Shown here piece by piece: positions 12,975 through 28,888 of a DNA stretch of 49,689 nucleotides (position 1 is its first letter; the number at the start of each line of letters is the position of its first letter). The DNA is from Actinomycetota bacterium (lineage in GTDB: Bacteria; Actinomycetota; Humimicrobiia; Humimicrobiales; Humimicrobiaceae), in contig JADBLP010000075.1 of NCBI GenBank assembly GCA_014894375.1, forward strand, positions 33,083 through 82,771. The letters run 5' to 3'. The notes beneath the pieces were generated by a model. That model did not search any database, was not told where the DNA came from, and was given only the letters and a program-made list of their open reading frames with translations. The position numbers and the translations under genes are program-made.

Positions 12975-12986
12975 TCAAATTACTCC

Positions 12987-13286
12987 TTAATAACCATCCA
13001 ATTTCCATTGATTAATATCTTTTTCTAATTTCTTTTTTACTCTATCTGAATTTCTATTATAATATATTCTATAAGAATTTTCACTCAAAATGCTATTGCA
13101 ATTATTAGATTCTTTAACTCCATCTATTATATCATTTATTTTATCATCACTTATATTTCTATCTTCTACAGTTTTTATAAAATCTTCGTAATCTGTTCCA
13201 TCAAAATGACTTGTACTTCCATCAAATTCAATTACTTTTTCAATAAACTCATCATAGGTATATTCATCATAGAAATATCTTGTCAT
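12987..13286 (-). CDS. acidic hypothetical protein
   Basis: 99 aa ORF rich in Asp/Glu/Tyr. Confidence 0.45.
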   Translation of the reverse strand: MTRYFYDEYTYDEFIEKVIEFDGSTSHFDGTDYEDFIKTVEDRNISDDKINDIIDGVKESNNCNSILSENSYRIYYNRNSDRVKKKLEKDINQWKLDGY

Positions 13287-13387
13287 AATTTAATCCTTCT
13301 CCACACAAATCTTCCTATCTCAAACGGATAACTTAACAACCAACCAAATGCCACGTAGCCAAAGATATACGCCAAAACTCCTAAGAT

Positions 13388-13537
13388 TTAACCACCTTTT
13401 CTATAAACTGTATCTGCTCTCCTGTCAATCTCTTTAATCAATTCATCACGCAAATTCTCGTTGCCTTCCTTATAACCATCATTTATCTTTATCTCAGCTA
13501 TGATTAATCTGTCTATCAAAATGCCAATTGTTTCCAT
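13388..13537 (-). CDS. small hypothetical protein (49 aa)
   Basis: Hand-found ORF METIGILIDRLIIAEIKINDGYKEG... It abuts the stop of 13538..13792. Confidence 0.3.
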   Translation of the reverse strand: METIGILIDRLIIAEIKINDGYKEGNENLRDELIKEIDRRADTVYRKGG

Positions 13538-13792
13538 TTATTTCTTCTTCTCCTTTAACTTCTCTTGTAAATGCCATAAAATTTCTTCTGCAACTGCAAT
13601 CTTACCAGAAACTACACTAATATAATTTATCCACAAAGAAGGACAAATCTTCTCCAATTCTTCATACGCCTTATTTGAGATTTCATAATTCTCAAACACT
13701 TGACTTGTTTCTTCATCAATTTCTTCACTAATCGTATGTGTATCGTTAAGCAACTTCTGAATCCTTTTGATTTCCTTCTCTATAGATTTCAT
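13538..13792 (-). CDS. coiled-coil protein
   Basis: 84 aa with heptad-like charged composition. Confidence 0.45.
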   Translation of the reverse strand: MKSIEKEIKRIQKLLNDTHTISEEIDEETSQVFENYEISNKAYEELEKICPSLWINYISVVSGKIAVAEEILWHLQEKLKEKKK

Positions 13793-13998
13793 AATTCACT
13801 TCCTTTTACCACATGCCTAAAAAAGTCGATAGATAAATGCAGATTTCAAGCAAAACTGCTAATCTATGCACATGCAACTCAACTTTGGAGTAAATACCTT
13901 ATCCTTTACTTTTCTCCTTATAGATTTTATTTACTATACTTCACTTTACTTTGCTTCACACCACTACACTTCACTGCACAAAACCAAACTTCATAAAT

Positions 13999-14730
13999 CT
14001 AAATGAAAAATATTTTATTGCCCTCTTCTTTGATAATCCCTGCTTCAAGAATTTCCTTCCAAATGGATAAAATTCGTTTCTCGCCAATTTCTGCGAAAAA
14101 ATCAACTGAATTGATAAATTCATTCTTGTCAATCCCTGCCAACATCCGATTCAACGGTGCATTTTCTTTTACTTTAATAACACCTTGCATAATCTTATCC
14201 TTGATTGGAACTTCATCTACCTTTTTGCCATTTGTTTTCTTTGCTTCTTTTGGCAATTCTACTTTTCCAAGATAAGCAACATCCCATTTAAAATTTCCAA
14301 GAAACTTTAATTTCCATTTAGTCCCTGGCAAATCTATACTTTTCAAATTGTTTTTTGTCATTTCCATAAGAACACCACGTAAACTTCCACTGTTATTGCC
14401 ACCAAGACCATAGACAACTTCTTTTCCTTTTACAAGTGCTTTCACTTCAAACTTATCCCATGCTTTTCTTGGTTGCCCTGCTTTAGTTAAATATGGATTC
14501 CCATCTTTATCTTTCAGTGGTGGATTCCAAATCTTTCCAAGAATATCTTCTTCTCCTGGTTCTACTTGTACGATTCCAGAAGTGAAAGTTGTAATCACAC
14601 TTCCATCTTCTTCATACAGTTGTTTCTCTTCTTCACGTGCTTTTCCTTTTTCTTTTTGATAGAAGTAAGCTGAACCAGCTAATTCTTCTAACACCTGCTT
14701 TAACATTTGGTCATCAAGTATACGTGCCAT
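13999..14730 (-). CDS. hypothetical protein (stand-alone transcription unit)
   Basis: 243 aa, Lys/Gly/Glu-rich. Followed by a 200-nt non-coding gap. No motif recognised. Confidence 0.55.
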   Translation of the reverse strand: MARILDDQMLKQVLEELAGSAYFYQKEKGKAREEEKQLYEEDGSVITTFTSGIVQVEPGEEDILGKIWNPPLKDKDGNPYLTKAGQPRKAWDKFEVKALVKGKEVVYGLGGNNSGSLRGVLMEMTKNNLKSIDLPGTKWKLKFLGNFKWDVAYLGKVELPKEAKKTNGKKVDEVPIKDKIMQGVIKVKENAPLNRMLAGIDKNEFINSVDFFAEIGEKRILSIWKEILEAGIIKEEGNKIFFI

Positions 14731-14742
14731 TTTTCTTTTCTC

Positions 14743-14961
14743 CTATTTTCCTCTTTTTTTCATAATTTCATATGCATCAGTTAATATAGATATATCCGTT
14801 CTTAATTCACGAATCTTACTCATATTTTTTTCATACTTTATATCTTGCTTTCTTTTTCCAATAAGAATTGTAATTTCATCTGGTGTAATCGTTTCACAAA
14901 ATTTCCATAATGCCCATGTATTTTTATTCTCTTTTGCTGATTTTGGTATATCCTCTTTCAT
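14743..14961 (-). CDS. hypothetical protein
   Basis: 72 aa ORF. ATGA overlap with the upstream ORF. Confidence 0.4.
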   Translation of the reverse strand: MKEDIPKSAKENKNTWALWKFCETITPDEITILIGKRKQDIKYEKNMSKIRELRTDISILTDAYEIMKKRGK

Positions 14962-15455
14962 TCATCCTCTACAATCAATTTCACATAATCCCATTTAGCA
15001 TACTTCTCTTTTTTATCAGTCGGTTCATACATTTCATAATCAGTTTCATCATCTTCACCCCTACATTCAGAACTTGCCCTTGCATTGAGATTTACATAAG
15101 TTATATCATCTTCATCTTCTGTATATGCAATCGAATACTTCTCCTTACCATCTTTATCATAAACAACCCCATTTTCAGAATTAAACCATTCTTCCTCTGA
15201 AATTGGTTCTGAACTTCTCCTGACTTCATATTCCTCATCAAGCATTTTCTTTCTTTGTAATAAATTCTTGTATTGCAATTGATAGTCATAATTATCCAAA
15301 TCAAAATGATTACGGAAATCTTGAATCTCTTTAGTATATTTATGTTTTAAGAACCTCAAACTAGAGATATCTAAATCTGAAATGGTTTCATCAAATCTTA
15401 TTTGATTCTTCCATCCATCTGTTCTTGGTATATTTGCCTTAAACTTTGTTTTCAT
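14958..15455 (-). CDS. acidic hypothetical protein
   Basis: 165 aa, strongly Asp/Glu/Tyr-rich. Confidence 0.5.
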   Translation of the reverse strand: MKTKFKANIPRTDGWKNQIRFDETISDLDISSLRFLKHKYTKEIQDFRNHFDLDNYDYQLQYKNLLQRKKMLDEEYEVRRSSEPISEEEWFNSENGVVYDKDGKEKYSIAYTEDEDDITYVNLNARASSECRGEDDETDYEMYEPTDKKEKYAKWDYVKLIVEDE

Positions 15456-15698
15456 AAATCCTCTCTTATTTATCCTCTATATAATTAGATAACAGGATAT
15501 TTTTCTTTATATCCTTTTCTATCATCGTTAATTCTTTCACTTTTTCTCCAAAATATGCTAACTTCTGCATGTGTGCTTGTAAAAATCCACTACTTCCTTG
15601 CTTTTTTCTTACTTCCAATGTGTTTTACCCCACTTGAAATAGATATGCCTTTCTATTATCACTTTTACCCTAAATATATGCGTGTAGATTGCATGTTT

Positions 15699-15959
15699 CT
15701 AAATCATGTACGCAAATGCTTCTTTCTCTGAAGAAATTTCATCATGCCAACTAACATTTTCAATTTGAGTAAGAAATCCAGAAATCATTCCCACTCGATA
15801 TGTACCCTTACTAATAACTGTACCGTCAAATGCTCTTCCACTATTATTCTTACCAAATCCATATGGTTCTTTATCAACTATAATAAAATCTGGTTTTGAT
15901 TCCTTCCAACTCCTTTTTATGATATTACCTTTCTTATAGATATTCTCATTAAGTTTCAT
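15699..15959 (-). CDS. EALAWLI-tail small protein, paralog T10
   Basis: 86 aa. Ends SSEKEAFAYMI-stop. Confidence 0.7.
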   Translation of the reverse strand: MKLNENIYKKGNIIKRSWKESKPDFIIVDKEPYGFGKNNSGRAFDGTVISKGTYRVGMISGFLTQIENVSWHDEISSEKEAFAYMI

Positions 15960-16187
15960 CTAAATCATTCTCACAAATGCCTCATCTTTGGATATAATCT
16001 TGAAATATGGTGGTTCTATACCATCCCAGAAATAAGTATTCAATCCTTTCTCAAATCCATTTAACCAAAATATCCATATTTTTCTACCTTCTTCAATCTT
16101 ATTAACCTTACCAATATCGCCCTTTCCATTATCTGTTATTAAATCAATAACATAATCACCAATCTTAACTTTCTTCATATCATCCAT
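15960..16187 (-). CDS. EALAWLI-tail small protein, paralog T11
   Basis: 75 aa. Starts MDDMKKVKIGDYV, ends ISKDEAFVRMI-stop. TAGATG junction with T10. Confidence 0.7.
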   Translation of the reverse strand: MDDMKKVKIGDYVIDLITDNGKGDIGKVNKIEEGRKIWIFWLNGFEKGLNTYFWDGIEPPYFKIISKDEAFVRMI

Positions 16188-16417
16188 GCCAACATCTCTT
16201 TTTCAGTTAAGAATTTATGAATTGTGGTTTTAGAATGTCCGAGCCCAAAACTTGTTTCCTCTCCAATATATCCTTCCCTACCAGAATTTGTCTTTAAGAT
16301 TCTATAATACACATCATTTCCTTTTATCTTAATAATTTTACCACAATTCATCCATTTATCATTAGGATTTCTATCTTTCCTCAAAACATATGGTTTATCA
16401 GTTATTGATTTCTTCAT
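16175..16417 (-). CDS. EALAWLI-tail small protein, paralog T12
   Basis: 80 aa. Ends LTEKEMLAWMI-stop. 13-nt overlap with T11. Confidence 0.75.
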   Translation of the reverse strand: MKKSITDKPYVLRKDRNPNDKWMNCGKIIKIKGNDVYYRILKTNSGREGYIGEETSFGLGHSKTTIHKFLTEKEMLAWMI

Positions 16418-16926
16418 CGTTTCATCCTCATTAACTTGTTATAATATTTCAGAATTGAATCAATAGAAACTGGTCTAAAATCCCATACGTCTGTTCCAAC
16501 ATTAATCACTGGAACATCTTGCAAAAAGATATACTTCCATTTGTTATGGATATGACCACAGAGGACTGCATCAAAATTCTCAATATATGTATTTGCATCT
16601 GGTGGTCTGTGTTGCACTAGAAACTTCTTATTTCCAAATTCCATAACTGCTGATTGAATAAGCGTTTTAACTCCAGAATTGTAATCGTGATTCCCTGCGA
16701 TATGAACAATCCTTCCATGAAGTTTCTTTTCCCATTCAAGTGCCTTATCTTGCCCTTTAAACGAGAAATCCCCCACATGATAGACTAAATCATCTGGTTC
16801 AACTTTTTTATTCCATCGTTTGACGATTTCATCATTCATTTCATCTATATCTTTGAATGGTCTATTTGCATAGATGATTATGTTACTATGTGAAAAGTGG
16901 CAATCACTTGAAAAATAAATCCTCAT
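16414..16926 (-). CDS. calcineurin-like metallophosphoesterase
   Basis: Motifs SDCHFSH, VGDFSF, GNHD and GHIH, in canonical order. Confidence 0.75.
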   Translation of the reverse strand: MRIYFSSDCHFSHSNIIIYANRPFKDIDEMNDEIVKRWNKKVEPDDLVYHVGDFSFKGQDKALEWEKKLHGRIVHIAGNHDYNSGVKTLIQSAVMEFGNKKFLVQHRPPDANTYIENFDAVLCGHIHNKWKYIFLQDVPVINVGTDVWDFRPVSIDSILKYYNKLMRMKR

Positions 16927-16937
16927 ATTAACCTCAC

Positions 16938-17174
16938 CTAAATCATTGATAAAAATGCCTCATCTTCAGTTACTACCTCAATTTCTCTTTCTGCAAATGG
17001 AAGATTATTAAATCCCTTGCGAACTGGAATAAAAATATTCACATCATATGGATAAGTTTGTGCGTATGAACTAACTCCTATAATCTTACCAACCTTATTT
17101 CTGTATCTCTCCATATTTTTATCTGGATTTAAAATCCTCACATAATCTCCTGATTTATACTTTAAATTAGCCAT
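16938..17174 (-). CDS. EALAWLI-tail small protein, paralog T13
   Basis: 78 aa. Starts MANLKYKSGDYVRIL, ends VTEDEAFLSMI-stop. Confidence 0.7.
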   Translation of the reverse strand: MANLKYKSGDYVRILNPDKNMERYRNKVGKIIGVSSYAQTYPYDVNIFIPVRKGFNNLPFAEREIEVVTEDEAFLSMI

Positions 17175-17428
17175 GCAAGAATCTCTCCATCTGTTGCCAA
17201 AATAATCTCATCATCTTTACAAATCCCATATGGTCTTTCTGTCCAATCTAATCCTTCCATCCTCTTATCTAAACATTCTATACGGTAAGGAAAACTGCAA
17301 AATTCAGGTTCATCAATTGAAAATATCTTATAGATTTTACCTATGCTTGCCTTATCCTTCTTGCTCTCACCATCACATGATTTAATTACCTTGACGTAAT
17401 CTCCCACCTTGAATTTCATATGAGCCAC
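17162..17428 (-). CDS. EALAWLI-tail small protein, paralog T14
   Basis: 88 aa. Starts MAHMKFKVGDYVKV, ends TDGEILAWLI-stop. 13-nt overlap with T13. Confidence 0.75.
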   Translation of the reverse strand: MAHMKFKVGDYVKVIKSCDGESKKDKASIGKIYKIFSIDEPEFCSFPYRIECLDKRMEGLDWTERPYGICKDDEIILATDGEILAWLI

Positions 17429-17679
17429 GCTAAAACTTCCCTTTCTGGGATTTCTCTGATTATGTTTGGTTTCTTAATATATACACAATAACCATGTCTT
17501 CCTATATTTCTAGTATTGTTTCCCCCACTATGAGTTGTTCCTAGAGGTCTTAATGCTTCAAATGTATACCAAGGTTCAATTTCGTTATCTTCCCCAAGAT
17601 ATCTCACTATTTCTCCATCATGTTTTAGATAACCACCACCAGATACGATATAATAATGATTCAGTTTTAAATCAACCAT
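17416..17679 (-). CDS. EALAWLI-tail small protein, paralog T15
   Basis: Track ORF 17416..17718 trimmed to the ATG (MVDLKLNHYY) that sits in the Trp codon of the T16 tail. Ends PEREVLAWLI-stop. Confidence 0.7.
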   Translation of the reverse strand: MVDLKLNHYYIVSGGGYLKHDGEIVRYLGEDNEIEPWYTFEALRPLGTTHSGGNNTRNIGRHGYCVYIKKPNIIREIPEREVLAWLI

Positions 17680-17903
17680 GCTAATGCTTCCTTTTCTGAT
17701 AGTTTTTTTAATTTGCAATGAGCAATATATAATCTACAAATTTTAGGAAATTGTAATGATTCAACTTCAACTGAACCACCAACATAAAACTTTGTTATTC
17801 TACAAACTTTATAATCTTTTAAATAATCACCATTATAATGAGCAGACTGTGGTAAAACTGTAAGTTTCACTATATCTCTAACTTTAAATTTTAGATTAAC
17901 CAT
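17667..17903 (-). CDS. EALAWLI-tail small protein, paralog T16
   Basis: 78 aa. Starts MVNLKFKVRDIV, ends LSEKEALAWLI-stop. Confidence 0.8.
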   Translation of the reverse strand: MVNLKFKVRDIVKLTVLPQSAHYNGDYLKDYKVCRITKFYVGGSVEVESLQFPKICRLYIAHCKLKKLSEKEALAWLI

Positions 17904-18142
17904 GCTAATGCTTCTCTTTCAGATAATTTTTCCATCTCATGTTTAGCATATATTACTCCACAATTTTCATTAGTTCCTTTAACTTTTCTGAAGAATTTAA
18001 CTACATATGGATATTTCTGTTCTAAAAAACCTATCTGTTTAATCTGTGCAACTTCTCCTTCTACATTTCTCCAATTTGGATAAGTCTTATCAACATTGAC
18101 TAATCTTACTACATCACCTATCTTAAACTTTAGATTAACCAT
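17891..18142 (-). CDS. EALAWLI-tail small protein, paralog T17
   Basis: 83 aa. Starts MVNLKFKIGDVV, ends LSEREALAWLI-stop. Confidence 0.8.
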   Translation of the reverse strand: MVNLKFKIGDVVRLVNVDKTYPNWRNVEGEVAQIKQIGFLEQKYPYVVKFFRKVKGTNENCGVIYAKHEMEKLSEREALAWLI

Positions 18143-18372
18143 GCGAGTGCTTCCTTGTCATTTAATATCGACAAATATGGAATACATCCTTCTTGATACC
18201 CATCCTCAGTATAACTTCCCTCAATCAATGTATTATAAAGTAATCTTACCCTAATAACATTTGCTTTTACAGATATTACCTGTCCTATCTCAATCCCATG
18301 CCCGATTTCACCACTAACATATTTCAATACCATACCAAGTTTGACTTGTTTAAATGATTTAAGTTTCTTCAT
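18130..18372 (-). CDS. EALAWLI-tail small protein, paralog T18
   Basis: 80 aa. Ends LNDKEALAWLI-stop. ATGA overlap with the VWA gene. Confidence 0.8.
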   Translation of the reverse strand: MKKLKSFKQVKLGMVLKYVSGEIGHGIEIGQVISVKANVIRVRLLYNTLIEGSYTEDGYQEGCIPYLSILNDKEALAWLI

Positions 18373-20966
18373 TTCACCACAACCACCTTGCCAAATGGAA
18401 ACTTATCATTCTCAAGTTTGTTTTCCCCTGCAACAATCCATAAAACATCAAGTCTTGCGTCTGATTTCTTCGGAAATTCTGTGTAACCATCAGTAAAACA
18501 TATAATAAATTTGGCATTTGGTCTTTCTTTTTTAAGCCACTTGAATACTGGGAGATGACTAGTCCCCCCTCCACCTTTCAATTTCACCTTGTTTCGTATA
18601 TCCCCAACGGTTGCTTGTTTGAATGTATGAACCCCATGAATTGCACAATCACAATCAATAATCGTCAAGTCCACATTCTTGAAACTGCGTGTGATTCCTA
18701 CTAATTCACCTAAGAACATTTTTAACTCCACATCTGAAATACTATTATGAACTAATATTCCATTAGCAAAATAATTATGATTATCTTTAACTTCTAAATC
18801 ATATACATCTATCTCTTCTGACAATTCAATTATTTTAGAACTTTTAACCTTCTCTAATACTATATAATCATTATAATCAATATAAATAGAGTTTTTTATA
18901 TTTTTAGTTTTTCTTAAATATTTCTCTATCTTGATTTTTTTGTCATTCCTTGTTACACCAACCATTTCATAGAATTTCTTAATGTTTTCTCTACCAGTTA
19001 CTTTTAACTTATAAATCAGTGTTTCTTTGATTATATTATCTCCTATTTTCCTTTCGGGTGTAATAGAACTTTCAATATAGCAATATATTCCTAATCTATT
19101 TAATAACATTTGCAATTGATATATTAGCTTTTTACTTGTGTTACTAAATGTTAAATCATGTTCTCCAATATGTCCTTCTGCATCAAAAAATCCTCTTATA
19201 AAACCACAAATAACATCATCATCTGCAACCGTTATTAAATTTGGAATATTCCTATACCTACTTCTTACTACAATATCTTCAAAATTTGTTTTTAGATAAT
19301 TAACAAATTCCTTTGAATAAATTGATAACCGTTGTCTTCTACAATGATTAGTTATCTTTGAATTAATATTTAATTTTCTAATTAATATTTGATAATACTG
19401 TAGATTTTCAATATTTTTGTCTGTTATTTGAGCGTAAAAAGAATTTTTACAAATACTCAGATTCCCATCACCACAAATCATTCCTAATACTTCTGCAAAA
19501 TCTCTATTGATATATGATGGTATAACTGGATGTCCTATTTTTGGCTTAATTCCTTTTAGAATCCTATAAACCTTCATACTACCTATTCCAGTGAGTTTAT
19601 GTATCTCATAACCACTATGTTTCCCAGATAATTCTATAACTTTTGAAACTTCATTTGGTGTTGCTAAATATTTATTATTATAACGTATCTCTGGCAATAT
19701 TACTTTATTCTGTGAAAAATCTATCTTTTTTGTGGTTATTAACCAATCATTTTTTCTTATTTCATCTGCTCTTTTTTCAATAATTTTTCCTTTCTTTAAC
19801 CAACTATTTTTTCTATCCCCCCATTCTCTGGCAAAGTTATTTACATATATAAATATCTTATGATTTGGTGTTACTTTTATCTCTTTTCCACTTTTTGTCT
19901 TTATTGTGATTATCTTCTTTGCTTTATATACAAATTTCTTATTAACCATATCCAATTTATTAACAGAAAAATCAGAATTTATCAAAGAAATTGGATTTAT
20001 TATATCTCTTATTTCTTTTATTCCTTCATCCGTGTATATTAATGTATCCCCAACAAAGCACCCACTTGTATCTATCGAAGCAATTATCTCAATAGATTCC
20101 TTTTCTGTAGAAGGAAGATAAATTCCAGTTGAAATGGTCCTTTTAGATGGTCTACTCCAAGTATAATCCATTGGAACCATAGATGAGATATATTTGAAAA
20201 GATATGTTCTCCAATTCACTTTAGGAGCAATCAAATCACCGATTATTCTTTCCATCCCTACTGGTACACTCCCACGATTCTTTGCATGGGCACAAGCATC
20301 AAGTAGAACCTTTCTCCAATGATTCTTTAAATCATTTTCATCTCGAAATGGAGATTTACCTTCACCTTCTTTACCATCTCCATCTTTGCCTTCCCCCTCA
20401 CCTTCTTTTGGATGGATATGTTCATCAAATCTCCCTTTTTCTCCATTTGCAATTGCCTGTTGAGTTGCTTCTTTTCCTTTCTTGGAGAAATACTTGTGAA
20501 GTTCATCATAGATTTCTCCTGAAGATTTAGTATCTATCTTTTCAATCTCATAACCTTGGAAGTTAAACTTATTATCCTTTGGAACCAATGCCCCTTGCTT
20601 ATCAGGAAGTTTCATGTTATCCTTAATTAAGATGTTATTCACTACAATATCACTTGCGATGTTTGCTAATTCTGGATACTGTTTCAACTCCTGTGCAAGT
20701 GTCATATGTTCCAAAACAACGTGCATAATTTCGTGACAAAGAACTCCATAAATTTCATCATCTGTAAGTGATTCAATAAACTTAGGATTCCAATAGCAAT
20801 CTCCATATGCAGAAACACCCATTGTCGGACACTCCTTTCTTTCTTGAAATTTCAAGTGTGAAACAAGAAAAGAAAAGAATGGTCTGCCTTCTGGTGGGTC
20901 TGCTCCAATCCGAATCTTTGCCTTGATAATCCTTTCTTCTGGTGTTAGTTTCAATTCATCTGTCAT
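18369..20966 (-). CDS. putative metallopeptidase (HExxH) / VWA-like protein (DUF2201/COG3864-like), interrupted by an intein
   Basis: N-terminal region has HEIMHVVLEH. The extein junction restores the MIDAS motif IDTSG|SISD. The C-terminal part has IIDCDC..GGGGTSHLPVF..ICFTDGY, typical of the MoxR-partner VWA family. Confidence 0.8.
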   Translation of the reverse strand: MTDELKLTPEERIIKAKIRIGADPPEGRPFFSFLVSHLKFQERKECPTMGVSAYGDCYWNPKFIESLTDDEIYGVLCHEIMHVVLEHMTLAQELKQYPELANIASDIVVNNILIKDNMKLPDKQGALVPKDNKFNFQGYEIEKIDTKSSGEIYDELHKYFSKKGKEATQQAIANGEKGRFDEHIHPKEGEGEGKDGDGKEGEGKSPFRDENDLKNHWRKVLLDACAHAKNRGSVPVGMERIIGDLIAPKVNWRTYLFKYISSMVPMDYTWSRPSKRTISTGIYLPSTEKESIEIIASIDTSGCFVGDTLIYTDEGIKEIRDIINPISLINSDFSVNKLDMVNKKFVYKAKKIITIKTKSGKEIKVTPNHKIFIYVNNFAREWGDRKNSWLKKGKIIEKRADEIRKNDWLITTKKIDFSQNKVILPEIRYNNKYLATPNEVSKVIELSGKHSGYEIHKLTGIGSMKVYRILKGIKPKIGHPVIPSYINRDFAEVLGMICGDGNLSICKNSFYAQITDKNIENLQYYQILIRKLNINSKITNHCRRQRLSIYSKEFVNYLKTNFEDIVVRSRYRNIPNLITVADDDVICGFIRGFFDAEGHIGEHDLTFSNTSKKLIYQLQMLLNRLGIYCYIESSITPERKIGDNIIKETLIYKLKVTGRENIKKFYEMVGVTRNDKKIKIEKYLRKTKNIKNSIYIDYNDYIVLEKVKSSKIIELSEEIDVYDLEVKDNHNYFANGILVHNSISDVELKMFLGELVGITRSFKNVDLTIIDCDCAIHGVHTFKQATVGDIRNKVKLKGGGGTSHLPVFKWLKKERPNAKFIICFTDGYTEFPKKSDARLDVLWIVAGENKLENDKFPFGKVVVVK
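18744..20060 (-). mobile_element. intein (439 aa) with LAGLIDADG homing endonuclease, inserted in the VWA MIDAS motif
   Basis: Starts with Cys (CFVGDTLIY; TGC at 20060..20058). Ends ..GILVHN, followed by Ser (AAT at 18746..18744). Internal LAGLIDADG motifs LGMICGDGNL and IRGFFDAEGHI. Confidence 0.8.
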
Positions 20967-20982
20967 AAATCTTCCATCTCCT

Positions 20983-21264
20983 TTAAATCAGATATGCTAA
21001 TGCTTCTTTTTCTGATAATTTCCTTATTACATTCTTCCTATCTTTATATTTACAACAATCATATTTACCATATCTACCAAATGACAATTTAAAACTACTT
21101 CCGTCACCATCAAAATCTCCGCTTTTAGTAAAAACTTCAAAGAGATAATCTATTAAATCTCCAGTATTATCTTTTCCTATAAATCTTGCCACTATCTCTT
21201 TTCCATATTCTTTAATCAGAAAATACTGTTCCAAATCACTTTCATCTAAATTCATGTGTTTCAC
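20983..21264 (-). CDS. EALAWLI-tail small protein, paralog T19
   Basis: 93 aa. Ends LSEKEALAYLI-stop. The downstream gene has its own AGGAG SD. Confidence 0.75.
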   Translation of the reverse strand: MKHMNLDESDLEQYFLIKEYGKEIVARFIGKDNTGDLIDYLFEVFTKSGDFDGDGSSFKLSFGRYGKYDCCKYKDRKNVIRKLSEKEALAYLI

Positions 21265-21507
21265 CTAAATCATGTAAAGAAAAGCTCTCTCCATTCCATT
21301 TGTAGTATCATCTATTATTTCTAAATTATTATATAACTGCATATATTCTCTCCCTTTAAAACACCCATTTATCCAATTTACATCTACTGCATCACTACCT
21401 TTATATTTTACATTAACTTTTGTAACTACTCCTATTGCCCCTTTATCTGCCATACCAACATCTTTCACTATATTCCCAACTTTAATCTTCCTTTTCACTT
21501 TTCCCAC
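21265..21507 (-). CDS. EALAWLI-tail small protein, divergent paralog T20
   Basis: 80 aa. Contains KIKVGNIVKDV, ends GMERAFLYMI-stop. The start overlaps the MoxR 3' end. Confidence 0.6.
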   Translation of the reverse strand: MGKVKRKIKVGNIVKDVGMADKGAIGVVTKVNVKYKGSDAVDVNWINGCFKGREYMQLYNNLEIIDDTTNGMERAFLYMI

Positions 21508-23758
21508 AATCCGTTATGTTAAAGAAGTATTTCTTATATTTCTTGCTGAAGTTGTCAAAGTGCTTACTTGCCAGAACATCTTTAATAAACCCATCTTGAT
21601 TTCTTCCTCTAATAATCCGTAACATGCAGATTGAAAAGTCTGGTGTAAGATTATCAGCAATCTCCAAAACCTTATCCATAGGAACTTCTGGTTTAGCATT
21701 CTTTCTAGTTTTCACTGGTTCTCTTTCAGAAAAGTACCACTCTGCTACAAGAGTTATAAGTGAATACTTCAAATCAATTTCAACAATTTCCTTTGCTTTT
21801 GTAGGGTCTGAAAGAATATCTGTTAGATTCACTTTACGTTTCAATCTCAAGAAACTAGCAAACTCCTTTGCAGGATATTCCCCAACTGCTGAAGCGGTAT
21901 ATCTTTCGATAGATTGAATATCTTCTTTTCCTTTAATAAGAGGACTACAGAGTTTTCCCCAAGAACGTGGAGTTGGAAATGCCATTTCATCTGTTTCTAC
22001 ATTTTCTTTTGGATTCAAATGAGTTGGATGTTGCATGAGAAAAGTTACGATTCTAAAGTCAATCCCATTTGCGAGTGCCCATTCACCCCAATCATTTTCA
22101 CATTTATCTGTTATCCCAGGTGCTTCAAGTGTAACATGTGTAAAACGATTCCTAAGAGGTCTGGAAAGTTCATAGACATTTGCTCTATCTTCTAAACGAT
22201 TCCCTGCTGCAACGCACATAACACCATCTGCAAGTGAAACTTCCCCACATGCCCTATCATTAATCACTTGATAAGAAGATGATTGTACACTTTGCGGTGC
22301 AAGATTTATTTCATCAAAGAAAATAATGCCTTCTGCTCCTTTTAAAGAGGCTAATTGTACCCAAATTGGAACCATCCATTCAACTACTTTTACATCTCCA
22401 ACTTTGTCTCCACCATTCACTTTTCTCAAGTCTGGAATTCCTTTTATATCGGATGGGTCACACATAGAAAGGCGTTCATCTTTCAGGAAGAAATACCTCT
22501 GTGGACTTTTCAGAACATCTTGTTTTTCATCCATAGAAAGTTTAGACCATTCTACATATATTTTCCCACGCTTTTGTGCAATATCTTTCGCTTTCTTTCT
22601 AACCGTATCGCTATTGTGAGTAACTGTAAAATCACCTAATAAAAATAAACCATCTTTATCTAGAGTAAACCCAAAGTATTCACCTATCCCTTTCTCTTTG
22701 ACATTGACCCCTGTTACTAGTACATCCTTTTTTTGTTTTCTTTTGTGAGCTTTTCTTCTTGTAATTTTTGTTGGTATTCTTATAATATCCCCAGAAATTG
22801 TAATGTCAAAAACTTCAGTTTCGTAATTTCTAGATTTTAATCTTGCAATTCCTGTTTTCTTATATGCTGCAAATCCAAGTGAACGTGCTAAAAATAAAAC
22901 ATCATCTGCTAACTTTTCATTAACAGATGTATAAATAAAACAATTGCATTGTAAATGCCCATCAGTATCAATTAATCCAGCTAGTAATTGTAATCTCACC
23001 TCTTGTGAATTAATTTTATATTCTTGTGGAATATGTTTATTTAAAATTAAATTCAAACTTCTCAATTTTTCTAGGACTGTATTTAGCGGTCTATTAGTTT
23101 TCTTTCCCATTACACCAGTTGTAATTCTGTATGAATTAGTTTTAGAATCTGTTTTATTGACATCAACATGAACTTTAAGATTTTCACTTTCAGCGAATTG
23201 TGTTAAAAATTCAACTATCTCTTTATCTTGTGTTGTAATACTAGGTGTTCGTGAATTACCGTCTCCTAACCATATCCCCAAAAAGTATGGGTCTAATATA
23301 ACTTTCTGGAATGGAAAATCTACACCTACACGATAAAGTTTGTGTTGGTGTTTAAAATGATTACTCTTCTTAATATAATCTTTAACTGAAATATTAAGAA
23401 TTTCTCCCCCTTTCTTTATGCTATGATATCTATTCCAATGATAACTCCTTTTCAATGACAAAATATGATGTTCGTTAGTTGAAAATGATTCGCCTTTTAC
23501 CGGCATAACTTCATATAACTTATCTTTACCAGAAGTTATAGTTAAGACCTTACGTGGAGTTGAATCTACCCCCATTAATTCATCCCCTACATTAATATCT
23601 TCAACTAATTTTATGATTCCATTATACATTAACACTGTCGTCCCTTTTTCAAGGCACTTCCCGATTCCTGGTGCTCCCCAGATATACATCGGAATTTTCC
23701 CATTATTGTAATGCTCTTCAATCATTTCCTCAAGTTCTTTGTGTCGTACAGATAACAT
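21482..23758 (-). CDS. MoxR-like AAA+ ATPase (AAA_5), interrupted by an intein
   Basis: Walker A is split as GAPGIGK|[intein]|SDT. Walker B IIFFDEINLA, sensor AAGN, and LRNRF. Confidence 0.8.
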   Translation of the reverse strand: MLSVRHKELEEMIEEHYNNGKIPMYIWGAPGIGKCLEKGTTVLMYNGIIKLVEDINVGDELMGVDSTPRKVLTITSGKDKLYEVMPVKGESFSTNEHHILSLKRSYHWNRYHSIKKGGEILNISVKDYIKKSNHFKHQHKLYRVGVDFPFQKVILDPYFLGIWLGDGNSRTPSITTQDKEIVEFLTQFAESENLKVHVDVNKTDSKTNSYRITTGVMGKKTNRPLNTVLEKLRSLNLILNKHIPQEYKINSQEVRLQLLAGLIDTDGHLQCNCFIYTSVNEKLADDVLFLARSLGFAAYKKTGIARLKSRNYETEVFDITISGDIIRIPTKITRRKAHKRKQKKDVLVTGVNVKEKGIGEYFGFTLDKDGLFLLGDFTVTHNSDTVRKKAKDIAQKRGKIYVEWSKLSMDEKQDVLKSPQRYFFLKDERLSMCDPSDIKGIPDLRKVNGGDKVGDVKVVEWMVPIWVQLASLKGAEGIIFFDEINLAPQSVQSSSYQVINDRACGEVSLADGVMCVAAGNRLEDRANVYELSRPLRNRFTHVTLEAPGITDKCENDWGEWALANGIDFRIVTFLMQHPTHLNPKENVETDEMAFPTPRSWGKLCSPLIKGKEDIQSIERYTASAVGEYPAKEFASFLRLKRKVNLTDILSDPTKAKEIVEIDLKYSLITLVAEWYFSEREPVKTRKNAKPEVPMDKVLEIADNLTPDFSICMLRIIRGRNQDGFIKDVLASKHFDNFSKKYKKYFFNITDCGKSEKED
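22613..23656 (-). mobile_element. intein (348 aa) with LAGLIDADG homing endonuclease, inserted in the MoxR P-loop
   Basis: Starts CLEKGTTVLMYNG (TGC at 23656..23654). Ends ..FTVTHN, followed by Ser (AAT at 22615..22613). LAGLIDADG motifs LGIWLGDGNS and LLAGLIDTDGHL. Confidence 0.8.
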
Positions 23759-23785
23759 TTTTCATCTCACTCCTATTTTCTATAT

Positions 23786-23896
23786 TCATTGTGCTACAAA
23801 TCCACAAACATTACATTGATATCCATAATGATTTAATATTGTACACAAAGAAAGCGTGCCTTTTTTACAATGTGGACAAATCTCATCTACTTCCAT
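23786..23896 (-). CDS. mini zinc-ribbon protein (36 aa)
   Basis: Hand-found ORF MEVDEICPHCKKGT..YQCNVCGF. Confidence 0.3.
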   Translation of the reverse strand: MEVDEICPHCKKGTLSLCTILNHYGYQCNVCGFVAQ

Positions 23897-23897
23897 C

Positions 23898-24041
23898 TTA
23901 AAAATCATCTCCTTCAATCAAAACAAAGTTTCTTCCCTTTCGTTCTGCAATGATTCCGATTCTCCCATCGGTAAGTTCAAACATTCCTCTTACAGTTCCA
24001 TTTCCTTTATCGGTGCTTATTTCTTCTCCAATCTTTACCAT
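23898..24041 (-). CDS. small protein (47 aa), KOW/SH3-like start without the family tail
   Basis: Hand-found ORF MVKIGEEISTDKGNGTVRGMFEL... Confidence 0.3.
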   Translation of the reverse strand: MVKIGEEISTDKGNGTVRGMFELTDGRIGIIAERKGRNFVLIEGDDF

Positions 24042-24057
24042 CTTTTTCAACTCCTTT

Positions 24058-24363
24058 TCAAATTTCATACAACCAAATCCTGTCTGCTAGTTTTTTATCC
24101 TTACCATAAACGTCTGCTTTTCTTAAAACTGTTTCTGAATTTTTATACCAACACCGTTTTCCATTACTATGACCTTTTATCATTTTACCATTTCCAACAA
24201 ATTCAAAAAGTAAAACAGAATCATTTGTAATATCTAAACATTTGGCAATCCATTGCTTTTTATCCTTAATTCCTGATGGAAAAGTAAAATATGTATTTTC
24301 TATTGCTTCAACCTTATTTGTAACTATGTAATATCCCCCAACTCGAATGTGCTTTATATCCAT
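24058..24363 (-). CDS. EALAWLI-tail small protein, divergent paralog T21
   Basis: 101 aa. Contains IRVGGYYIV, ends LADRIWLYEI-stop. Confidence 0.55.
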   Translation of the reverse strand: MDIKHIRVGGYYIVTNKVEAIENTYFTFPSGIKDKKQWIAKCLDITNDSVLLFEFVGNGKMIKGHSNGKRCWYKNSETVLRKADVYGKDKKLADRIWLYEI

Positions 24364-24365
24364 AG

Positions 24366-24617
24366 TTATATCAACTCTGCCAACATTTCCTTTTCAGATA
24401 AGATTTTTACTGTATCACCATTACCTTTATATAAATCTTCTTCCCCCACCTTGTAAATTGTTTTCCATTCCACATCATCTATTATCTTTAGTATTTTGAT
24501 ATACTTACTATCTCTAGGTGAAAGTTTATTCTCAAGATAATATCCCAAGTAAACCGTATGTCGATTCGGTTCTCCTCTTGGTCTTATCATTTTTACATAT
24601 GTTACCATAATCACCAT
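24366..24617 (-). CDS. EALAWLI-tail small protein, paralog T22
   Basis: Track ORF trimmed to the ATG at 24617 (TGATG junction). Ends LSEKEMLAELI-stop. Confidence 0.7.
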   Translation of the reverse strand: MVIMVTYVKMIRPRGEPNRHTVYLGYYLENKLSPRDSKYIKILKIIDDVEWKTIYKVGEEDLYKGNGDTVKILSEKEMLAELI

Positions 24618-24898
24618 CAAATTAGATATGCTAACGCTTCTCTTTCATTTATTTTGTAATAATCATCAATTGTAAACCATCCACACAATCTAATCTGGTT
24701 GTCTGCACCATCTGTGAATAAATCCAACATCTTTAATGAAGTGTATCCTCTCACAATAACTGGAATCCTATCTCTGAGTGTCAGTTGTTTATTTACTTTT
24801 GATTCAACAATTATCCTTTCTTTATCTTCTATTATTAAAATTATATCTCCCTTTTTTATGCAATCCCCAATTTTAAGTTTCTGCTTCATTTGTATCAA
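24617..24898 (-). CDS. EALAWLI-tail small protein, paralog T23
   Basis: 93 aa. Contains KLKIGDCIKKGD, ends INEREALAYLI-stop. Confidence 0.75.
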   Translation of the reverse strand: MIQMKQKLKIGDCIKKGDIILIIEDKERIIVESKVNKQLTLRDRIPVIVRGYTSLKMLDLFTDGADNQIRLCGWFTIDDYYKINEREALAYLI

Positions 24899-25215
24899 AT
24901 CATCCGTGCTATTACTTCATTTTCATCAATAAGTTTATCATACATACCTGTTAAATTAAAAGTGTGTGTAGTTATAAACCCAAGTAGTCTTTCATTATTT
25001 GAATATTGTATTGGTGAACAAACAATTTTTGCTTTATTAACATATCTATCATATACAATGTCTGGTTGATTATCCAAATCTTTATATATAGTTATTTTAC
25101 GATAAGAATTTCCTAGAATTAAAAATATAATGTATCTACCAGTATTATACCCAACTTCATCAATAAATGTTCTTTTTACATATTCTCCTTTTCTTGGATA
25201 TTTTCTTTTCTTCAT
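24895..25215 (-). CDS. EALAWLI-tail small protein, paralog T24
   Basis: 106 aa. Ends IDENEVIARMI-stop. ATGA overlaps on both sides. Confidence 0.65.
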   Translation of the reverse strand: MKKRKYPRKGEYVKRTFIDEVGYNTGRYIIFLILGNSYRKITIYKDLDNQPDIVYDRYVNKAKIVCSPIQYSNNERLLGFITTHTFNLTGMYDKLIDENEVIARMI

Positions 25216-25463
25216 CCAAACATCACCTGTGATTCTGCTTTTGTCTTATCTATCATCTGGTTAAACTCCTGGACTGATTTAAATGCATGGTCAGCAATAA
25301 GAACAGAAAGCAACCATTCCTTGCAACCATCATTTTTAATCCTTTCTTCGATTGCCTGAATGATTCCTTTCACACTCTTTATCTCACCATTCACCATCTT
25401 CAGGATAATTAGATTCACTTCATTAAGTGCTTGTTTCATTTCTTCTTCATTTAGTTCTTTCAT
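25212..25463 (-). CDS. helical hypothetical protein
   Basis: 83 aa ORF. Confidence 0.45.
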   Translation of the reverse strand: MKELNEEEMKQALNEVNLIILKMVNGEIKSVKGIIQAIEERIKNDGCKEWLLSVLIADHAFKSVQEFNQMIDKTKAESQVMFG

Positions 25464-25618
25464 AAAATTTCCTCTCTAACTAAAACTTCCATTGGTGGGA
25501 ATGTCAAACAAGCATAAATCAATTTTTCATTTTTCCATGCTATCCCTTCCATTAATCCATTTTTATAGTTTTTAAAGTATATTTCTTTCATTAGAATTTC
25601 TCTCCATTTATTCTCCAT
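25460..25618 (-). CDS. small hypothetical protein (52 aa)
   Basis: Hand-found ORF MENKWREILMKEIYFKNYKNG..., ends VREEIL-stop. ATGA overlap. Confidence 0.3.
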   Translation of the reverse strand: MENKWREILMKEIYFKNYKNGLMEGIAWKNEKLIYACLTFPPMEVLVREEIL

Positions 25619-25761
25619 AAGTTTATTGTATTTATCTCCATTATCCTATACATAAATGCTAAGAAGATATTGTAATTGCCATATCTCCTATCATTATAAA
25701 AATTATATCCTACATTAAAATAAGTTATATGTGTATGTAATTTCATTTTCTCCTCTCCTTT

Positions 25762-26013
25762 TCATATCATATACAACATTGCTTCCCCTTCAGATAAAAG
25801 ATAAAACTTACAATTTCTATAATAAACTGAACCGTAACTTCCAACATGGAACCTATGGGTTATATCTTTCACAATCTTCAATTTGGTTCCACCGATTTCC
25901 ATTTCTCTTCCATCATTTTTTTCACATATTTTTAGAAGTTTTTCTCCATCCGATTCCCATTCTTGGATATAATAATCCCCTATCTTTATCTCACTTGGAT
26001 GGACTTCTTTCAT
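25762..26013 (-). CDS. EALAWLI-tail small protein, paralog T25
   Basis: 83 aa. Contains EIKIGDYYIQ, ends LSEGEAMLYMI-stop. Confidence 0.7.
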   Translation of the reverse strand: MKEVHPSEIKIGDYYIQEWESDGEKLLKICEKNDGREMEIGGTKLKIVKDITHRFHVGSYGSVYYRNCKFYLLSEGEAMLYMI

Positions 26014-26254
26014 TCTTTTCTCCTATCCCAGAAAACCATTTGTTAAGATGTGAATTGAAATGCCACTTATCCATATCAAAATCCAGCATTTGCTCGATAT
26101 TACAAGATGGACAAGCATTGTGCTTACTTATTGCGTGTTTTATCACTAAATCAGCATGTAGATGTGGTATTGGAACTGCCACCTTGATTCTGATAATCCC
26201 ATCTTTTGTTAAGAAAATGGATTGATTTTCCAGTTCAATTATATTCCAATTCAT
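25991..26254 (-). CDS. hypothetical protein
   Basis: 87 aa ORF. ATGA overlap with T26. Confidence 0.4.
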   Translation of the reverse strand: MNWNIIELENQSIFLTKDGIIRIKVAVPIPHLHADLVIKHAISKHNACPSCNIEQMLDFDMDKWHFNSHLNKWFSGIGEKNERSPSK

Positions 26255-26502
26255 ATCAACCTTGCTAGAAGTTCTTTTTCTGAAAGTTTATAGATTTTAT
26301 CTTCATCCAAAATTGAAAATGATTTAAAATGGTTACGTTCACTCCAAAATCTGTCATCTGATAAATCTTTTATTAGTATTAATTTATTCTGCTTATTAGT
26401 TGTAAACATAATTCTATCAGTTGAAGAAGAGGTATCATTAATTAAATAGTAGATTCCTCCTTTCCTTAAAGCATTATTATCTTTTATTTTTCTCATATCC
26501 AC
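26251..26502 (-). CDS. EALAWLI-tail small protein, paralog T26
   Basis: 83 aa (GTG start at 26502, or ATG at 26496). Ends LSEKELLARLI-stop. Confidence 0.7.
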   Translation of the reverse strand: MDMRKIKDNNALRKGGIYYLINDTSSSTDRIMFTTNKQNKLILIKDLSDDRFWSERNHFKSFSILDEDKIYKLSEKELLARLI

Positions 26503-26560
26503 TCGATAATAACTATTTCTTCTGGAATGTGTTTATATTTGCTTAGTTTCATAAATGTCC

Positions 26561-26725
26561 TTACATATCGTGATGAGCATCTGTCGCCTGAAAACCACAC
26601 TTTTCACATATAAGTATAAAGCATGATTTATATTTCTTAGGTAAATTATCTGGATTAGTTTTACAAAATTTACAATCTTGCCTAATTAATTTTCCACCAC
26701 ATTGACTACATTTTTTTATTCTCAT
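26561..26725 (-). CDS. double zinc-ribbon mini protein (54 aa)
   Basis: Hand-found ORF MRIKKCSQCGGKLIRQDCKFCK..CEKCGF. Confidence 0.35.
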   Translation of the reverse strand: MRIKKCSQCGGKLIRQDCKFCKTNPDNLPKKYKSCFILICEKCGFQATDAHHDM

Positions 26726-26859
26726 CTAAATCCACCACATGATACACGTATCCCTCTGGAACTCCTGTTACTTCAATCACGTAACCTCTCCAAGTGATTA
26801 TTTCAATTGATTTATTTATTTCTACCGACCTCTTTCATTTCCATCAAATCCCTTTCTTT

Positions 26860-27258
26860 CTATAACCAATCCCATTTATTTATCTTTACATTGTCATTAT
26901 GAACTTTGGAAAACATTTTCCAATTATATTTATTTGCAGCTTTAGTATCTTCATGCATATAATCTTCAATTATAGTCCATTTCATATTTTTATATTTTTT
27001 TTCCAATTTATATACAAATCTTTTCATTAAAGATAAAAAATCTTTACCAGAAAAAATTTTATGATGTAATCCTATTTCTAATTTATCACAATCTATCCAT
27101 CCTGCTTCTGCCCATGCTAAATCATTTCCTGATTTGTATATGCTTGTATCTTTTAAAGCATATTTAATTTTATTTTCATTAAAATAATGTTCTAGTTCTG
27201 GTTTTATCATATTCCAAATTATGCTCTCATTGTATCTATCACTTTTTTTAATTTTCAT
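26860..27258 (-). CDS. hypothetical protein
   Basis: 132 aa ORF, Trp/Lys-rich, non-repetitive. Confidence 0.5.
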   Translation of the reverse strand: MKIKKSDRYNESIIWNMIKPELEHYFNENKIKYALKDTSIYKSGNDLAWAEAGWIDCDKLEIGLHHKIFSGKDFLSLMKRFVYKLEKKYKNMKWTIIEDYMHEDTKAANKYNWKMFSKVHNDNVKINKWDWL

Positions 27259-27362
27259 TTATATCCACCTCTTTAATTAACTTAAATTTATCTTTCATTT
27301 CTAAAATCCTTTTGTGCTTGTACTTTTAAGCCACTTAACAACCAAATAAGCCATTGAAACAT

Positions 27363-27743
27363 CTAATCATCTCTTTTAAACATTATCTTTTCTAATTCAT
27401 TCATTTTAGGGCAATTCTTTTCACAACACTTATAAAAGTATAATGGATTTTCTTTATGATTTCTTATTAAACAGATACAACCAAAACAAGTTCCTTTGAT
27501 TCCATCTATATCTACTTCTATATCAAATTGTTGTGCATACTTGCATCTGCTTGGTGGTATTAACCAATACTCGTCTTTCTCGTGTTGTTTCTTCTTTGAG
27601 AAATGTTTATTAACATTCTTAGCTGTCCTTGTCATTTCTTCCTCATGCGTCATAGTTAAGACTTCTCTTTCTATTTCCTTATCTATCCGCTTGTTGTTCT
27701 TTTCTATGCGTTTAAGTGTTTCTTTATCTATCATTCTTTTCAC
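27363..27743 (-). CDS. Cys-rich hypothetical protein
   Basis: 126 aa. Basic coiled N-terminus, then CKYAQQ..CFGCIC..CCEKNC. Confidence 0.5.
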   Translation of the reverse strand: MKRMIDKETLKRIEKNNKRIDKEIEREVLTMTHEEEMTRTAKNVNKHFSKKKQHEKDEYWLIPPSRCKYAQQFDIEVDIDGIKGTCFGCICLIRNHKENPLYFYKCCEKNCPKMNELEKIMFKRDD

Positions 27744-27747
27744 TTCC

Positions 27748-27981
27748 TTAAATAAGATATGCTAATGCTATTTCTTCAGTTATTTCCTCAAATCTATCCA
27801 ATTCATCCCAATTACGATAAACTCTATCTCCCTTTTGTAATGAACTATCTTTTGCGTAAAATAAAACACATTCATATCCCAAAATATCTTGGTACGCTTC
27901 TTTAATAACTTTAAAAACCAATGTGCTAACAGTTCCATATGGATTTATGTGTTTGTATATCCTTCCAATGTATTTATCCAT
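27748..27981 (-). CDS. EALAWLI-tail small protein, paralog T27
   Basis: 77 aa. Ends ITEEIALAYLI-stop. Confidence 0.7.
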   Translation of the reverse strand: MDKYIGRIYKHINPYGTVSTLVFKVIKEAYQDILGYECVLFYAKDSSLQKGDRVYRNWDELDRFEEITEEIALAYLI

Positions 27982-27994
27982 TTAAATCACTAGT

Positions 27995-28279
27995 TTAAAT
28001 TAATCTTGCCAATACTTCTTTATCTGTAAGTTTTTTAGCTTTAAGTTCTGTTGCATATATAATATACTCATCTGTTTTTATATCCCCAAGAAGTGCAACA
28101 TGTATTTTATCATCTAATCTACCACCAAATTCATAAGATTCTATTCTTAAAACTTTGTATGCCTTGCCAATAATTTTCTCTTTGTTGAATGTTATTGTTT
28201 CACCATTTGAAAATGTAAGACATTCTGACACATCACAAACTTTTATGAAGTCTCCTTTTTTGATTAATCTTTTATCCAT
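27995..28279 (-). CDS. EALAWLI-tail small protein, paralog T28
   Basis: 94 aa. Contains IKKGDFIKV, ends LTDKEVLARLI-stop. Confidence 0.7.
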   Translation of the reverse strand: MDKRLIKKGDFIKVCDVSECLTFSNGETITFNKEKIIGKAYKVLRIESYEFGGRLDDKIHVALLGDIKTDEYIIYATELKAKKLTDKEVLARLI

Positions 28280-28294
28280 TCACAACCAACTCTT

Positions 28295-28531
28295 TTAAAT
28301 AAGATATGCCAATAAATCATGCTCATTTATCTTTTCTAATTCTTCTTCAGAATATGCCAATTCTGTACAATTTTCAAATGATTTAATAAACCTGACTTGA
28401 ATTGGATATCTTGCACTCTTTTCTTCTGAAATTCCAAATACTTTTCCTGCTTTTCCTATACTCTTTTTAGCATTTATTGTTTCATCACCAATAAGTCTTT
28501 TTATAATCACATAATCTCCAACTTTTAGCAT
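28295..28531 (-). CDS. EALAWLI-tail small protein, paralog T29
   Basis: 78 aa. Starts MLKVGDYVIIK, ends NEHDLLAYLI-stop. Confidence 0.7.
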   Translation of the reverse strand: MLKVGDYVIIKRLIGDETINAKKSIGKAGKVFGISEEKSARYPIQVRFIKSFENCTELAYSEEELEKINEHDLLAYLI

Positions 28532-28544
28532 ACAATCAACCTTT

Positions 28545-28880: not shown

Positions 28881-28888
28881 TAAAACAC

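Follow-up and report, generated by a model that had tools for sequence, protein, structure and literature searches.

Predicted class-1 inteins split Walker A in a phage MoxR-class ATPase and the MIDAS motif in its DUF2201 peptidase/VWA partner

Introduction

A two-gene module encoding a MoxR ATPase and a vWA protein with an N-terminal metallopeptidase domain has been described from jumbo phages as a chaperone-cochaperone pair; it is located there in group 2.2, and a part in the assembly and processing of virions has been proposed for it (Iyer et al., 2021, Viruses 13:63, PMC7824862). The present analysis concerns a pair of this kind, each member of which is interrupted by a predicted intein, in a 49,689-nucleotide stretch of DNA (the window) that represents the 3' 49.7 kb of the 82.8-kb contig C139 (JADBLP010000075.1), itself incomplete at both ends. 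The module is the same as that of Iyer et al. in that an AAA_5-type ATPase goes with an HExxH peptidase fused to a VWA domain, whereas the window pair lies among small early genes, on a contig that measures at least 83 kb and in its early/replication arm, and both of its genes carry inteins.

The best structural match of the window ATPase is NorQ. In the NorQ/NorD system, ATP binding depends on the Walker A lysine, and the residues of the MIDAS (the metal ion-dependent adhesion site) are essential for function on the target and dispensable for binding of the ATPase (PMC9976466, PMC13036017). The window partner shares with this system a complete DxSxS-T-D MIDAS, although NorD has no HExxH peptidase as its N-domain, the target of NorQD is nitric oxide reductase, into which it inserts iron, and sequence identity between the Nor proteins and the window proteins is only 14-15%. 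A further virus-encoded MoxR and VWA pair is the MoxR-vWA chaperone system of Acidianus two-tailed virus, an archaeal virus (cited in PMC7824862); it lacks a peptidase domain.

Insertion into the P-loop is a documented preference of inteins in ATPases, according to a survey by Novikova et al. (2016, PMC4760082). The P-loop inteins described there (RFC-S site a, MCM site a, DnaB site b and PI-SceI in yeast VMA1) likewise lie inside Walker A and are class-1 inteins with a LAGLIDADG endonuclease, and the MoxR intein of the window is a sequence homologue of PI-SceI. The host protein is different here, a phage MoxR-class ATPase being absent from the survey tables as far as these are accessible. No intein linked to MoxR was found in the accessible text of the literature searched that mentions both.

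Intein-split motifs in both precursors

Two open reading frames (ORFs) of the minus strand, which a preliminary description of this DNA had taken for a 758-aa MoxR/AAA_5 protein and an 865-aa protein with HEIMH and VWA parts, were confirmed (Table 1), and each is split within a metal-binding motif by an insert with exact boundaries. With slashes marking the junctions, the ATPase precursor reads GAPGIGK/CLEKG...(348 aa)...VTHN/SDT, the insertion lying between K34 and S383, and the partner precursor reads IDTSG/CFVGD...(439 aa)...LVHN/SISD. All splicing residues are present in both inserts, namely C35, block B, HN at 381-382 and +1 S383 in the ATPase, and C303, block B, HN at 740-741 and +1 S742 in the partner. 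The Cys...His-Asn/Ser signature and the two LAGLIDADG motifs that had been noted for each insert are confirmed.

Domain searches agree with this. The MoxR insert matches Hom_end_hint (9.9e-19, 68.7 bits), Hom_end (1.3e-14) and LAGLIDADG_3 (5.1e-7) in Pfam and, in the PDB, PI-SceI 1dfa (E=2.1e-20), with which residues 1-52 and 117-348 are matched. The VWA insert matches Intein_splicing (1.1e-24, 87.4 bits) and LAGLIDADG_3 (3.6e-20), exceeds the NCBIfam cut-offs of intein_Nterm and intein_Cterm (TIGR01445, TIGR01443), and finds its nearest PDB matches in archaeal V-ATPase-A and PI-PfuI-type inteins. To judge from sequence, both inserts qualify as inteins of class 1, with Cys1, a TxxH in block B, a terminal His-Asn and a +1 Ser, and each has an apparently intact two-motif LAGLIDADG endonuclease. 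The GC content is 30% in the MoxR intein and 25% in the VWA intein, as compared with 37% in the exteins of each. Both +1 Ser splicing nucleophiles are at the same time invariant residues of the metal-binding motif of the host protein (Walker A and MIDAS, respectively), and, in the predicted structures, each insertion point falls in the loop that joins beta-strand 1 to helix 1 of a Rossmann-like domain.

Empty alleles and independent acquisition

With the exteins joined, 1055 homologues of the ATPase and 639 of the DUF2201/VWA protein were found, among them the intein-free P0001 (411 aa, 90% identity) and P0121 (422 aa, 76%), respectively. Alignment with intein-less homologues, which the preliminary description had called for, bears out the insertion points: the proteins show clean gaps exactly at GIGK/S and DTSG/S, and the MoxR intein is absent from 9 aligned homologues. 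Empty sites are also found in DNA, where relatives with no intein DNA align across the whole exteins with 86% (ATPase) and 81% (VWA) identity. These alignments dispose of the reading that the inserts are ordinary domains of their families and not mobile inteins. It is refuted by the clean gaps, by the absence of the insert from 1055 MoxR-type matches of about 350-430 aa, and by an exhaustive HMMER search, in which most of the 150 best DUF2201 matches are two-part and broken at residues 303/742; no point in its favour was found.

The two inteins can be aligned with each other over 65 residues only, around one LAGLIDADG motif and with 22% identity, which indicates that they are unrelated and were acquired independently. 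It is very probable that the two genes of the phage module were each invaded, independently, by a different homing intein. After translation, the precursors would self-splice to restore GAPGIGKS and DTSGS, and ATP binding by the ATPase and target binding by the VWA domain would become possible only in that state. By means of the endonucleases the inteins would be carried to empty alleles during co-infection, and the inteins would persist in these positions since only precise deletion keeps the invariant motifs. Because the roles of the Walker A lysine and of the MIDAS are known from NorQ/NorD, the precursors would presumably be inactive until spliced, and the earlier proposal that both proteins need splicing before they can act is sound by analogy (PMC9976466).

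The inteins might instead be dead and the two genes decaying pseudogenes that are still open by chance, as the lower GC content of the inteins relative to the exteins could suggest. This is very unlikely in view of the intact ORFs, of the retention of all splicing residues, of both LAGLIDADG acidic residues and of all invariant extein motifs, and of the ratio of nonsynonymous to synonymous substitution rates (dN/dS) of the exteins, 0.08-0.21 against three relatives, which indicates purifying selection on the exteins. In addition, 2 contigs are recorded with the identical MoxR precursor protein, and a separate 11.4-kb contig encodes P0122, a fragment identical to the VWA precursor.

The closest intein-free VWA allele has an altered 3' end (L010:1366-1825). 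The last 85 nt of the window gene match it at 92% about 370 nt further downstream, behind an extra 82-aa ORF, and the displaced match indicates that the 3' end of that allele has been rearranged.

Identity of the two host proteins

The AAA_5 score of the ATPase rises from 18.7 to 24.8 bits once its exteins are joined in silico, which is marginal against the Pfam cut-off of 22, and the protein matches phrog_1297 at 1.6e-62. Invariant columns comprise G-x-x-G-x-GKS, DE and the arginine of FPTPR. Since a PDB sequence search with the exteins returned nothing useful, structure prediction followed by fold search was used: AlphaFold models were made for intein-free homologues of both proteins, and the alignments comprised 57-58 sequences each. 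The model of P0001 has a predicted local distance difference test score (pLDDT) of 89, and the top three entries of its PDB fold search are NorQ, with a template modelling (TM) score relative to the target of 0.64-0.67, followed by AAA modules of dynein and by 2R44, a MoxR protein.

The partner precursor matches DUF2201_N (4.8e-36) and DUF2201 (6.1e-19) in Pfam. After splicing in silico, DUF2201_N scores 127.5 bits, and the DUF2201 match becomes contiguous over positions 2-122 of the 123-position profile, rising from 68.8 to 83 bits. Its invariant residues are H78, E79 and H82 of HExxH and D298, S300, S302, T362 and D386, which make up a complete DxSxS...T...D MIDAS. DUF2201_N is a predicted zincin-type metallopeptidase domain with HExxH in the family profile. 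The model of an intein-free partner homologue has a pLDDT of 85, and its C-terminal half matches VWA/integrin I-domain folds with a fold-search probability of 1.0. No functional study of DUF2201 was found in the literature searched. Intein-free DUF2201 genes are labelled 'HNH endonuclease' or 'homing endonuclease' in PHROG 1314 and in many GenBank records (for example NC_071039.1, OR805292.1 and NC_055919.1); this recurring misannotation may derive from family members with inteins or homing endonucleases.

The MoxR and VWA-peptidase genes form a genuine pair of partners and belong to a published and widespread phage module, so that their earlier description as the halves of one putative two-component machine is upheld by the NorQ-like and VWA folds, by the published pair (PMC7824862) and by genomic pairing. 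MoxR and VWA genes are paired in the window, in seven other loci (L005, L006 and L011-L015) and in Klebsiella phage P184, in which the two matches adjoin (15788-16549 and 16772-17932). By tblastn, homologues occur in 776 (ATPase) and 640 (partner) named phage records, including N4-like, PA5oct-like and rV5-like phages. A scan of IMG/VR with the VWA precursor yielded two intein-free DUF2201 loci at 32% identity; most of the remaining matches were short and fell on unrelated inteins. Vibrio phage PJN101, with a MoxR gene, two small ORFs and a gene for a 433-aa protein, was considered as a counterpart of the window layout and rejected, the 433-aa protein having by eye the look of an SPFH/band-7 protein and not of DUF2201.

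Table 1. Positions in the window of the two precursor genes, their inteins and motifs, and the small ORFs lying between them
Feature	Position	Strand	Basis or detail
MoxR-class AAA+ ATPase precursor ORF, 758 aa	21482..23758	-	AAA_5 after splicing, phrog_1297
MoxR N-extein, aa 1-34, ending in Walker A N-part GAPGIGK	23657..23758	-	alignment, motif coordinates
MoxR intein, aa 35-382, 348 aa, PI-SceI type	22613..23656	-	Pfam, PDB, homologue gaps
MoxR intein block B TNEH (aa 94-97)	23468..23479	-	motif
MoxR intein LAGLIDADG motifs LGIWLGDGN, LAGLIDTDG	23255..23281, 22958..22984	-	acidic residue kept in each
MoxR C-extein, aa 383-758, first residue = +1 Ser of Walker A	21482..22612	-	alignment
MoxR C-extein Walker B FFDE	22295..22327	-	motif
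MoxR C-extein invariant FPTPRSW	21959..21982	-	motif
Two small tail-family ORFs between the partners	20983..21507	-	21265..21507 (80 aa), 20983..21264 (93 aa)
DUF2201 zinc-peptidase/VWA precursor ORF, 865 aa	18369..20966	-	DUF2201_N, DUF2201
VWA-protein N-extein, aa 1-302, HExxH peptidase domain	20061..20966	-	Pfam, alignment
HEIMH motif, aa 78-82	20721..20735	-	motif
MIDAS N-part IDTSG	20061..20075	-	motif
VWA intein, aa 303-741, 439 aa	18744..20060	-	Pfam, NCBIfam, PDB, homologue gaps
VWA intein block B TPNH (aa 366-369)	19860..19871	-	motif
VWA intein LAGLIDADG motifs LGMICGDGN, IRGFFDAEG	19461..19487, 19173..19199	-	acidic residue kept in each
VWA-protein C-extein, aa 742-865, VWA domain from +1 Ser of DxSxS	18369..18743	-	alignment, fold
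MIDAS Thr (GGGGTSH)	18555..18575	-	motif
MIDAS Asp (FTDGY)	18483..18500	-	motif

Recurrence of inteins in both families

Inteins recur in other members of both families. In the ATPase family, for which the search was restricted to the C-extein and about 1% of homologues have an intein (a rough figure, limited by the word index), other intein-bearing homologues (n=8) carry it at three sites: GK/S of Walker A (P0243, P0246, P0249), QAS/C-YQ after Walker B (P0242, P0245), and the invariant FPTPR/SW (P0244, P0247). Five sites in all were found in the DUF2201 family. Besides the MIDAS site (P0251, P0252, P0261, P0263, and also the VWA_CoxE protein P0255), three lie around HExxH (F/CHExxH, HEx/CH and HExxH/C) and the fifth is DYT[WY]/S in the locus L014. 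The MIDAS-site inteins of these metagenomic proteins are inserted at the same DxSG/S point as that of the window, match Intein_splicing and LAGLIDADG_3, and are carried by precursors that are 34-47% identical to the window protein along their whole length; the window differs in that the partner ATPase also has an intein, a comparison that covers the VWA-protein side alone. Both families are multi-site intein hotspots in metagenomes, and all of the sites are at invariant or nearly invariant motifs.

In L014, which belongs to an unrelated lineage, both partners have inteins at sites unlike those of the window, and double invasion has consequently arisen independently at least 2 times. What the present analysis adds is the family-wide map of intein sites together with this independent recurrence. 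Two host proteins, the phage MoxR-class ATPase and the DUF2201 peptidase/VWA partner, join the catalogue of intein targets, and their insertion sites form a natural map of essential residues in a widespread phage module. The pattern of sites accords with the rule that an intein endures at positions where losing it imprecisely would be lethal; no new mechanism is opened, the case being an ordinary one of selfish elements at conserved active sites.

The DUF2201 gene of L014 (L014:5499-7561) consists of two translationally coupled ORFs with an ATGA overlap and is split inside its intein, at DYTY/SKPS. The first ORF ends with an N-terminal splicing part of about 95 aa, while the second starts with a Cys-rich segment (by eye similar to a zinc ribbon or an HNH-type nuclease) that is followed by the C-terminal splicing block. 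This intein is a candidate naturally split intein.

Two points weigh against independent invasion as the whole account. The dN/dS of the exteins averages mostly the history before insertion and is no proof that the present precursors are productive. Moreover, both intein-family matches of the 83-kb contig sit in this one pair, none being found in the ribonucleotide reductase (RNR), family-B DNA polymerase (PolB), large terminase (TerL) and portal genes of C139; this is a mild coincidence, which some shared property of the pair would explain more readily than pure chance.

Alternatively, the inteins might form a coordinated switch, in which splicing conditions (redox, temperature, metal ions) gate the whole machine and the partners mature together at a set time of infection. 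The interruption of both partners in key motifs, the confinement of the contig's inteins to the pair and the second doubly invaded lineage would accord with such a switch, and published abstracts record conditional splicing by inteins of other proteins. Nevertheless it is unlikely: close relatives operate the module without any intein, the inteins are unrelated and hence were acquired separately, insertion sites that vary widely across the family form a pattern of selfish homing and not of a conserved regulatory design, and endonuclease motifs are kept in both inteins. On the preferred reading of independent invasion, the presence of inteins in both partners reflects the fact that both families are frequent targets and not a designed regulatory link.

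Tail-bearing small proteins around the pair

The pair is surrounded by a family of 21 small ORFs, all on the minus strand, whose products end in ...E-[AVIM]-L-A-[WYR]-[LM]-I and which extend over 25 kb of the early arm (4779..30327); no such ORF was found elsewhere in the bacterial bin to which C139 belongs. As had been described, genes with the EALAWLI tail lie on both sides of the pair and between its two members, and tail-bearing ORFs likewise flank the pair and separate its genes in the related loci L005, L009, L006 and L011. The intein features and this arrangement of tail ORFs, as observed, are far beyond chance.

The position of the two intergenic slots is always taken by small tail ORFs in close relatives, although the occupants are not conserved: an ortholog of a slot ORF was found in the nearest relative alone and for one slot alone, with 76% identity. 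The slot occupants turn over quickly. Relatives whose ATPases are 43-90% identical carry tail versions of their own, namely ...EALARLI and ...EVLAWMI in L005, ...ALARMI, ...EILAYLI and ...EALAWLI in L009 and L010, ...IMVEEL in L006 (consensus xIMVE[ES]L), and ...KDEVRVEML in about 38/50 small ORFs of L011, in which 13 small ORFs lie between the partner genes. Each genome has one uniform consensus, which changes from phage to phage and in the window is EKEALAWLI. In four more distant loci with adjacent MoxR-DUF2201 pairs (L012-L015), tail-like ORFs make up 0-9%, and none was found in two named phages fetched via their MoxR genes, the N4-like L007 and the rV5-like L008. The tail is a trait of the early region of this phage clade, and the pair is embedded in that hypervariable region.

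Synonymous sites in the tail codons vary freely, which indicates protein-level selection on the motif. At 8 junctions, the tail codons double as the ribosome-binding site and ATG of the next gene. The tail proteins had no match in Pfam or PHROGs.

It had been suggested that the tail proteins might serve this chaperone/peptidase system as clients or adaptors; their acidic-hydrophobic tail could, for example, dock on the MIDAS or be cut by the peptidase. The position of the tail ORFs around and within the pair in five loci, the conservation of the tail at the protein level with free synonymous sites, and its uniformity within each genome together with its difference between phages would suit this idea, as would the Glu found in nearly all of the tails given above, since a MIDAS binds an acidic ligand residue (PMC9976466). 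Against it, the 21 members are spread over 25 kb, beyond the neighbourhood of the pair; the tail does not accompany the module across genomes, being rare in L012-L015 despite adjacent pairs and missing from L007 and L008, while homologues of the proteins of the pair occur in 640-776 named phage records; the slot ORFs are not orthologous beyond the closest relative; the proteins match no known family; and the overlap with ribosome-binding site and ATG at 8 junctions is a separate constraint on the tail codons. The tail-family data contain no positive evidence for a client relationship, which is quite unlikely.

A related conception is that, within this clade, the MoxR/VWA-peptidase clears early proteins by means of a C-terminal tag that consists of an acidic residue and a hydrophobic ...L/I-COOH end. 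The MIDAS metal would bind the tail Glu or the terminal carboxylate, the ATPase would feed the protein to the HExxH site, and the two inteins would postpone activation of the module until splicing is complete. If this were true, the module would be a phage-encoded, tag-directed protease for early proteins, but the conception is highly doubtful.

Genomic context

C139 is phage throughout and derives from an uncultured bacteriophage. Upstream of the window it carries genes for the RNR large subunit, the family-B DNA polymerase, a prim-pol and a glycosyltransferase; the minus-strand arm of the window has a recombinase and a ParB-like gene, and the plus-strand arm encodes the large terminase, the portal and fibre-like products. 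A tRNA gene search of the window found none. The contig belongs to a 1.6-Mb bacterial bin of 139 contigs (G000), and its GC content is 31.5% as compared with 34.8% for the bin. An origin from an archaeal virus, which the archaeal-type inteins and a gene resembling Alba had brought to mind, was rejected, because the bin is bacterial (ribosomal protein L21p present, S8e absent). A DNA search with the 5.4-kb region of the pair against named phages found no related genome; it returned only matches of 64-96 bp, which lie within or at the ends of the two inteins of the window and, in the other phages, in genes for RNR, DNA polymerase and portal.

Three free-standing ORFs of the minus strand with LAGLIDADG_3 matches are present on C139, one of 237 aa in the window (7380..8093) and two of 225 aa (G000:C139:20150-20827) and 321 aa (G000:C139:23535-24500), so that the contig holds several LAGLIDADG elements besides the two inteins.

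Further inteins were seen in other contigs of the bin. C35, another low-GC contig (68.6 kb, 30.8% GC), starts inside an intein-bearing ORF of 655 aa (G000:C35:40-2007, plus strand; ...SI/CLPPNQMVL...MTHN/CSKP), and no end overlap of 21-127 bases was found between it and the end of the window. The N-terminal extein of this ORF has a GFSIG motif, which is presumably prohead-protease-like, and its C-terminal part is charged and has a coiled-coil-like appearance. On C44, a contig on which no tail-family ORFs were found, an RNR of 1188 aa, which we take to be class II-like, is split by a LAGLIDADG intein (G000:C44:2678-6244, minus strand), and inteins are thus present in the bin outside the phage contig too.

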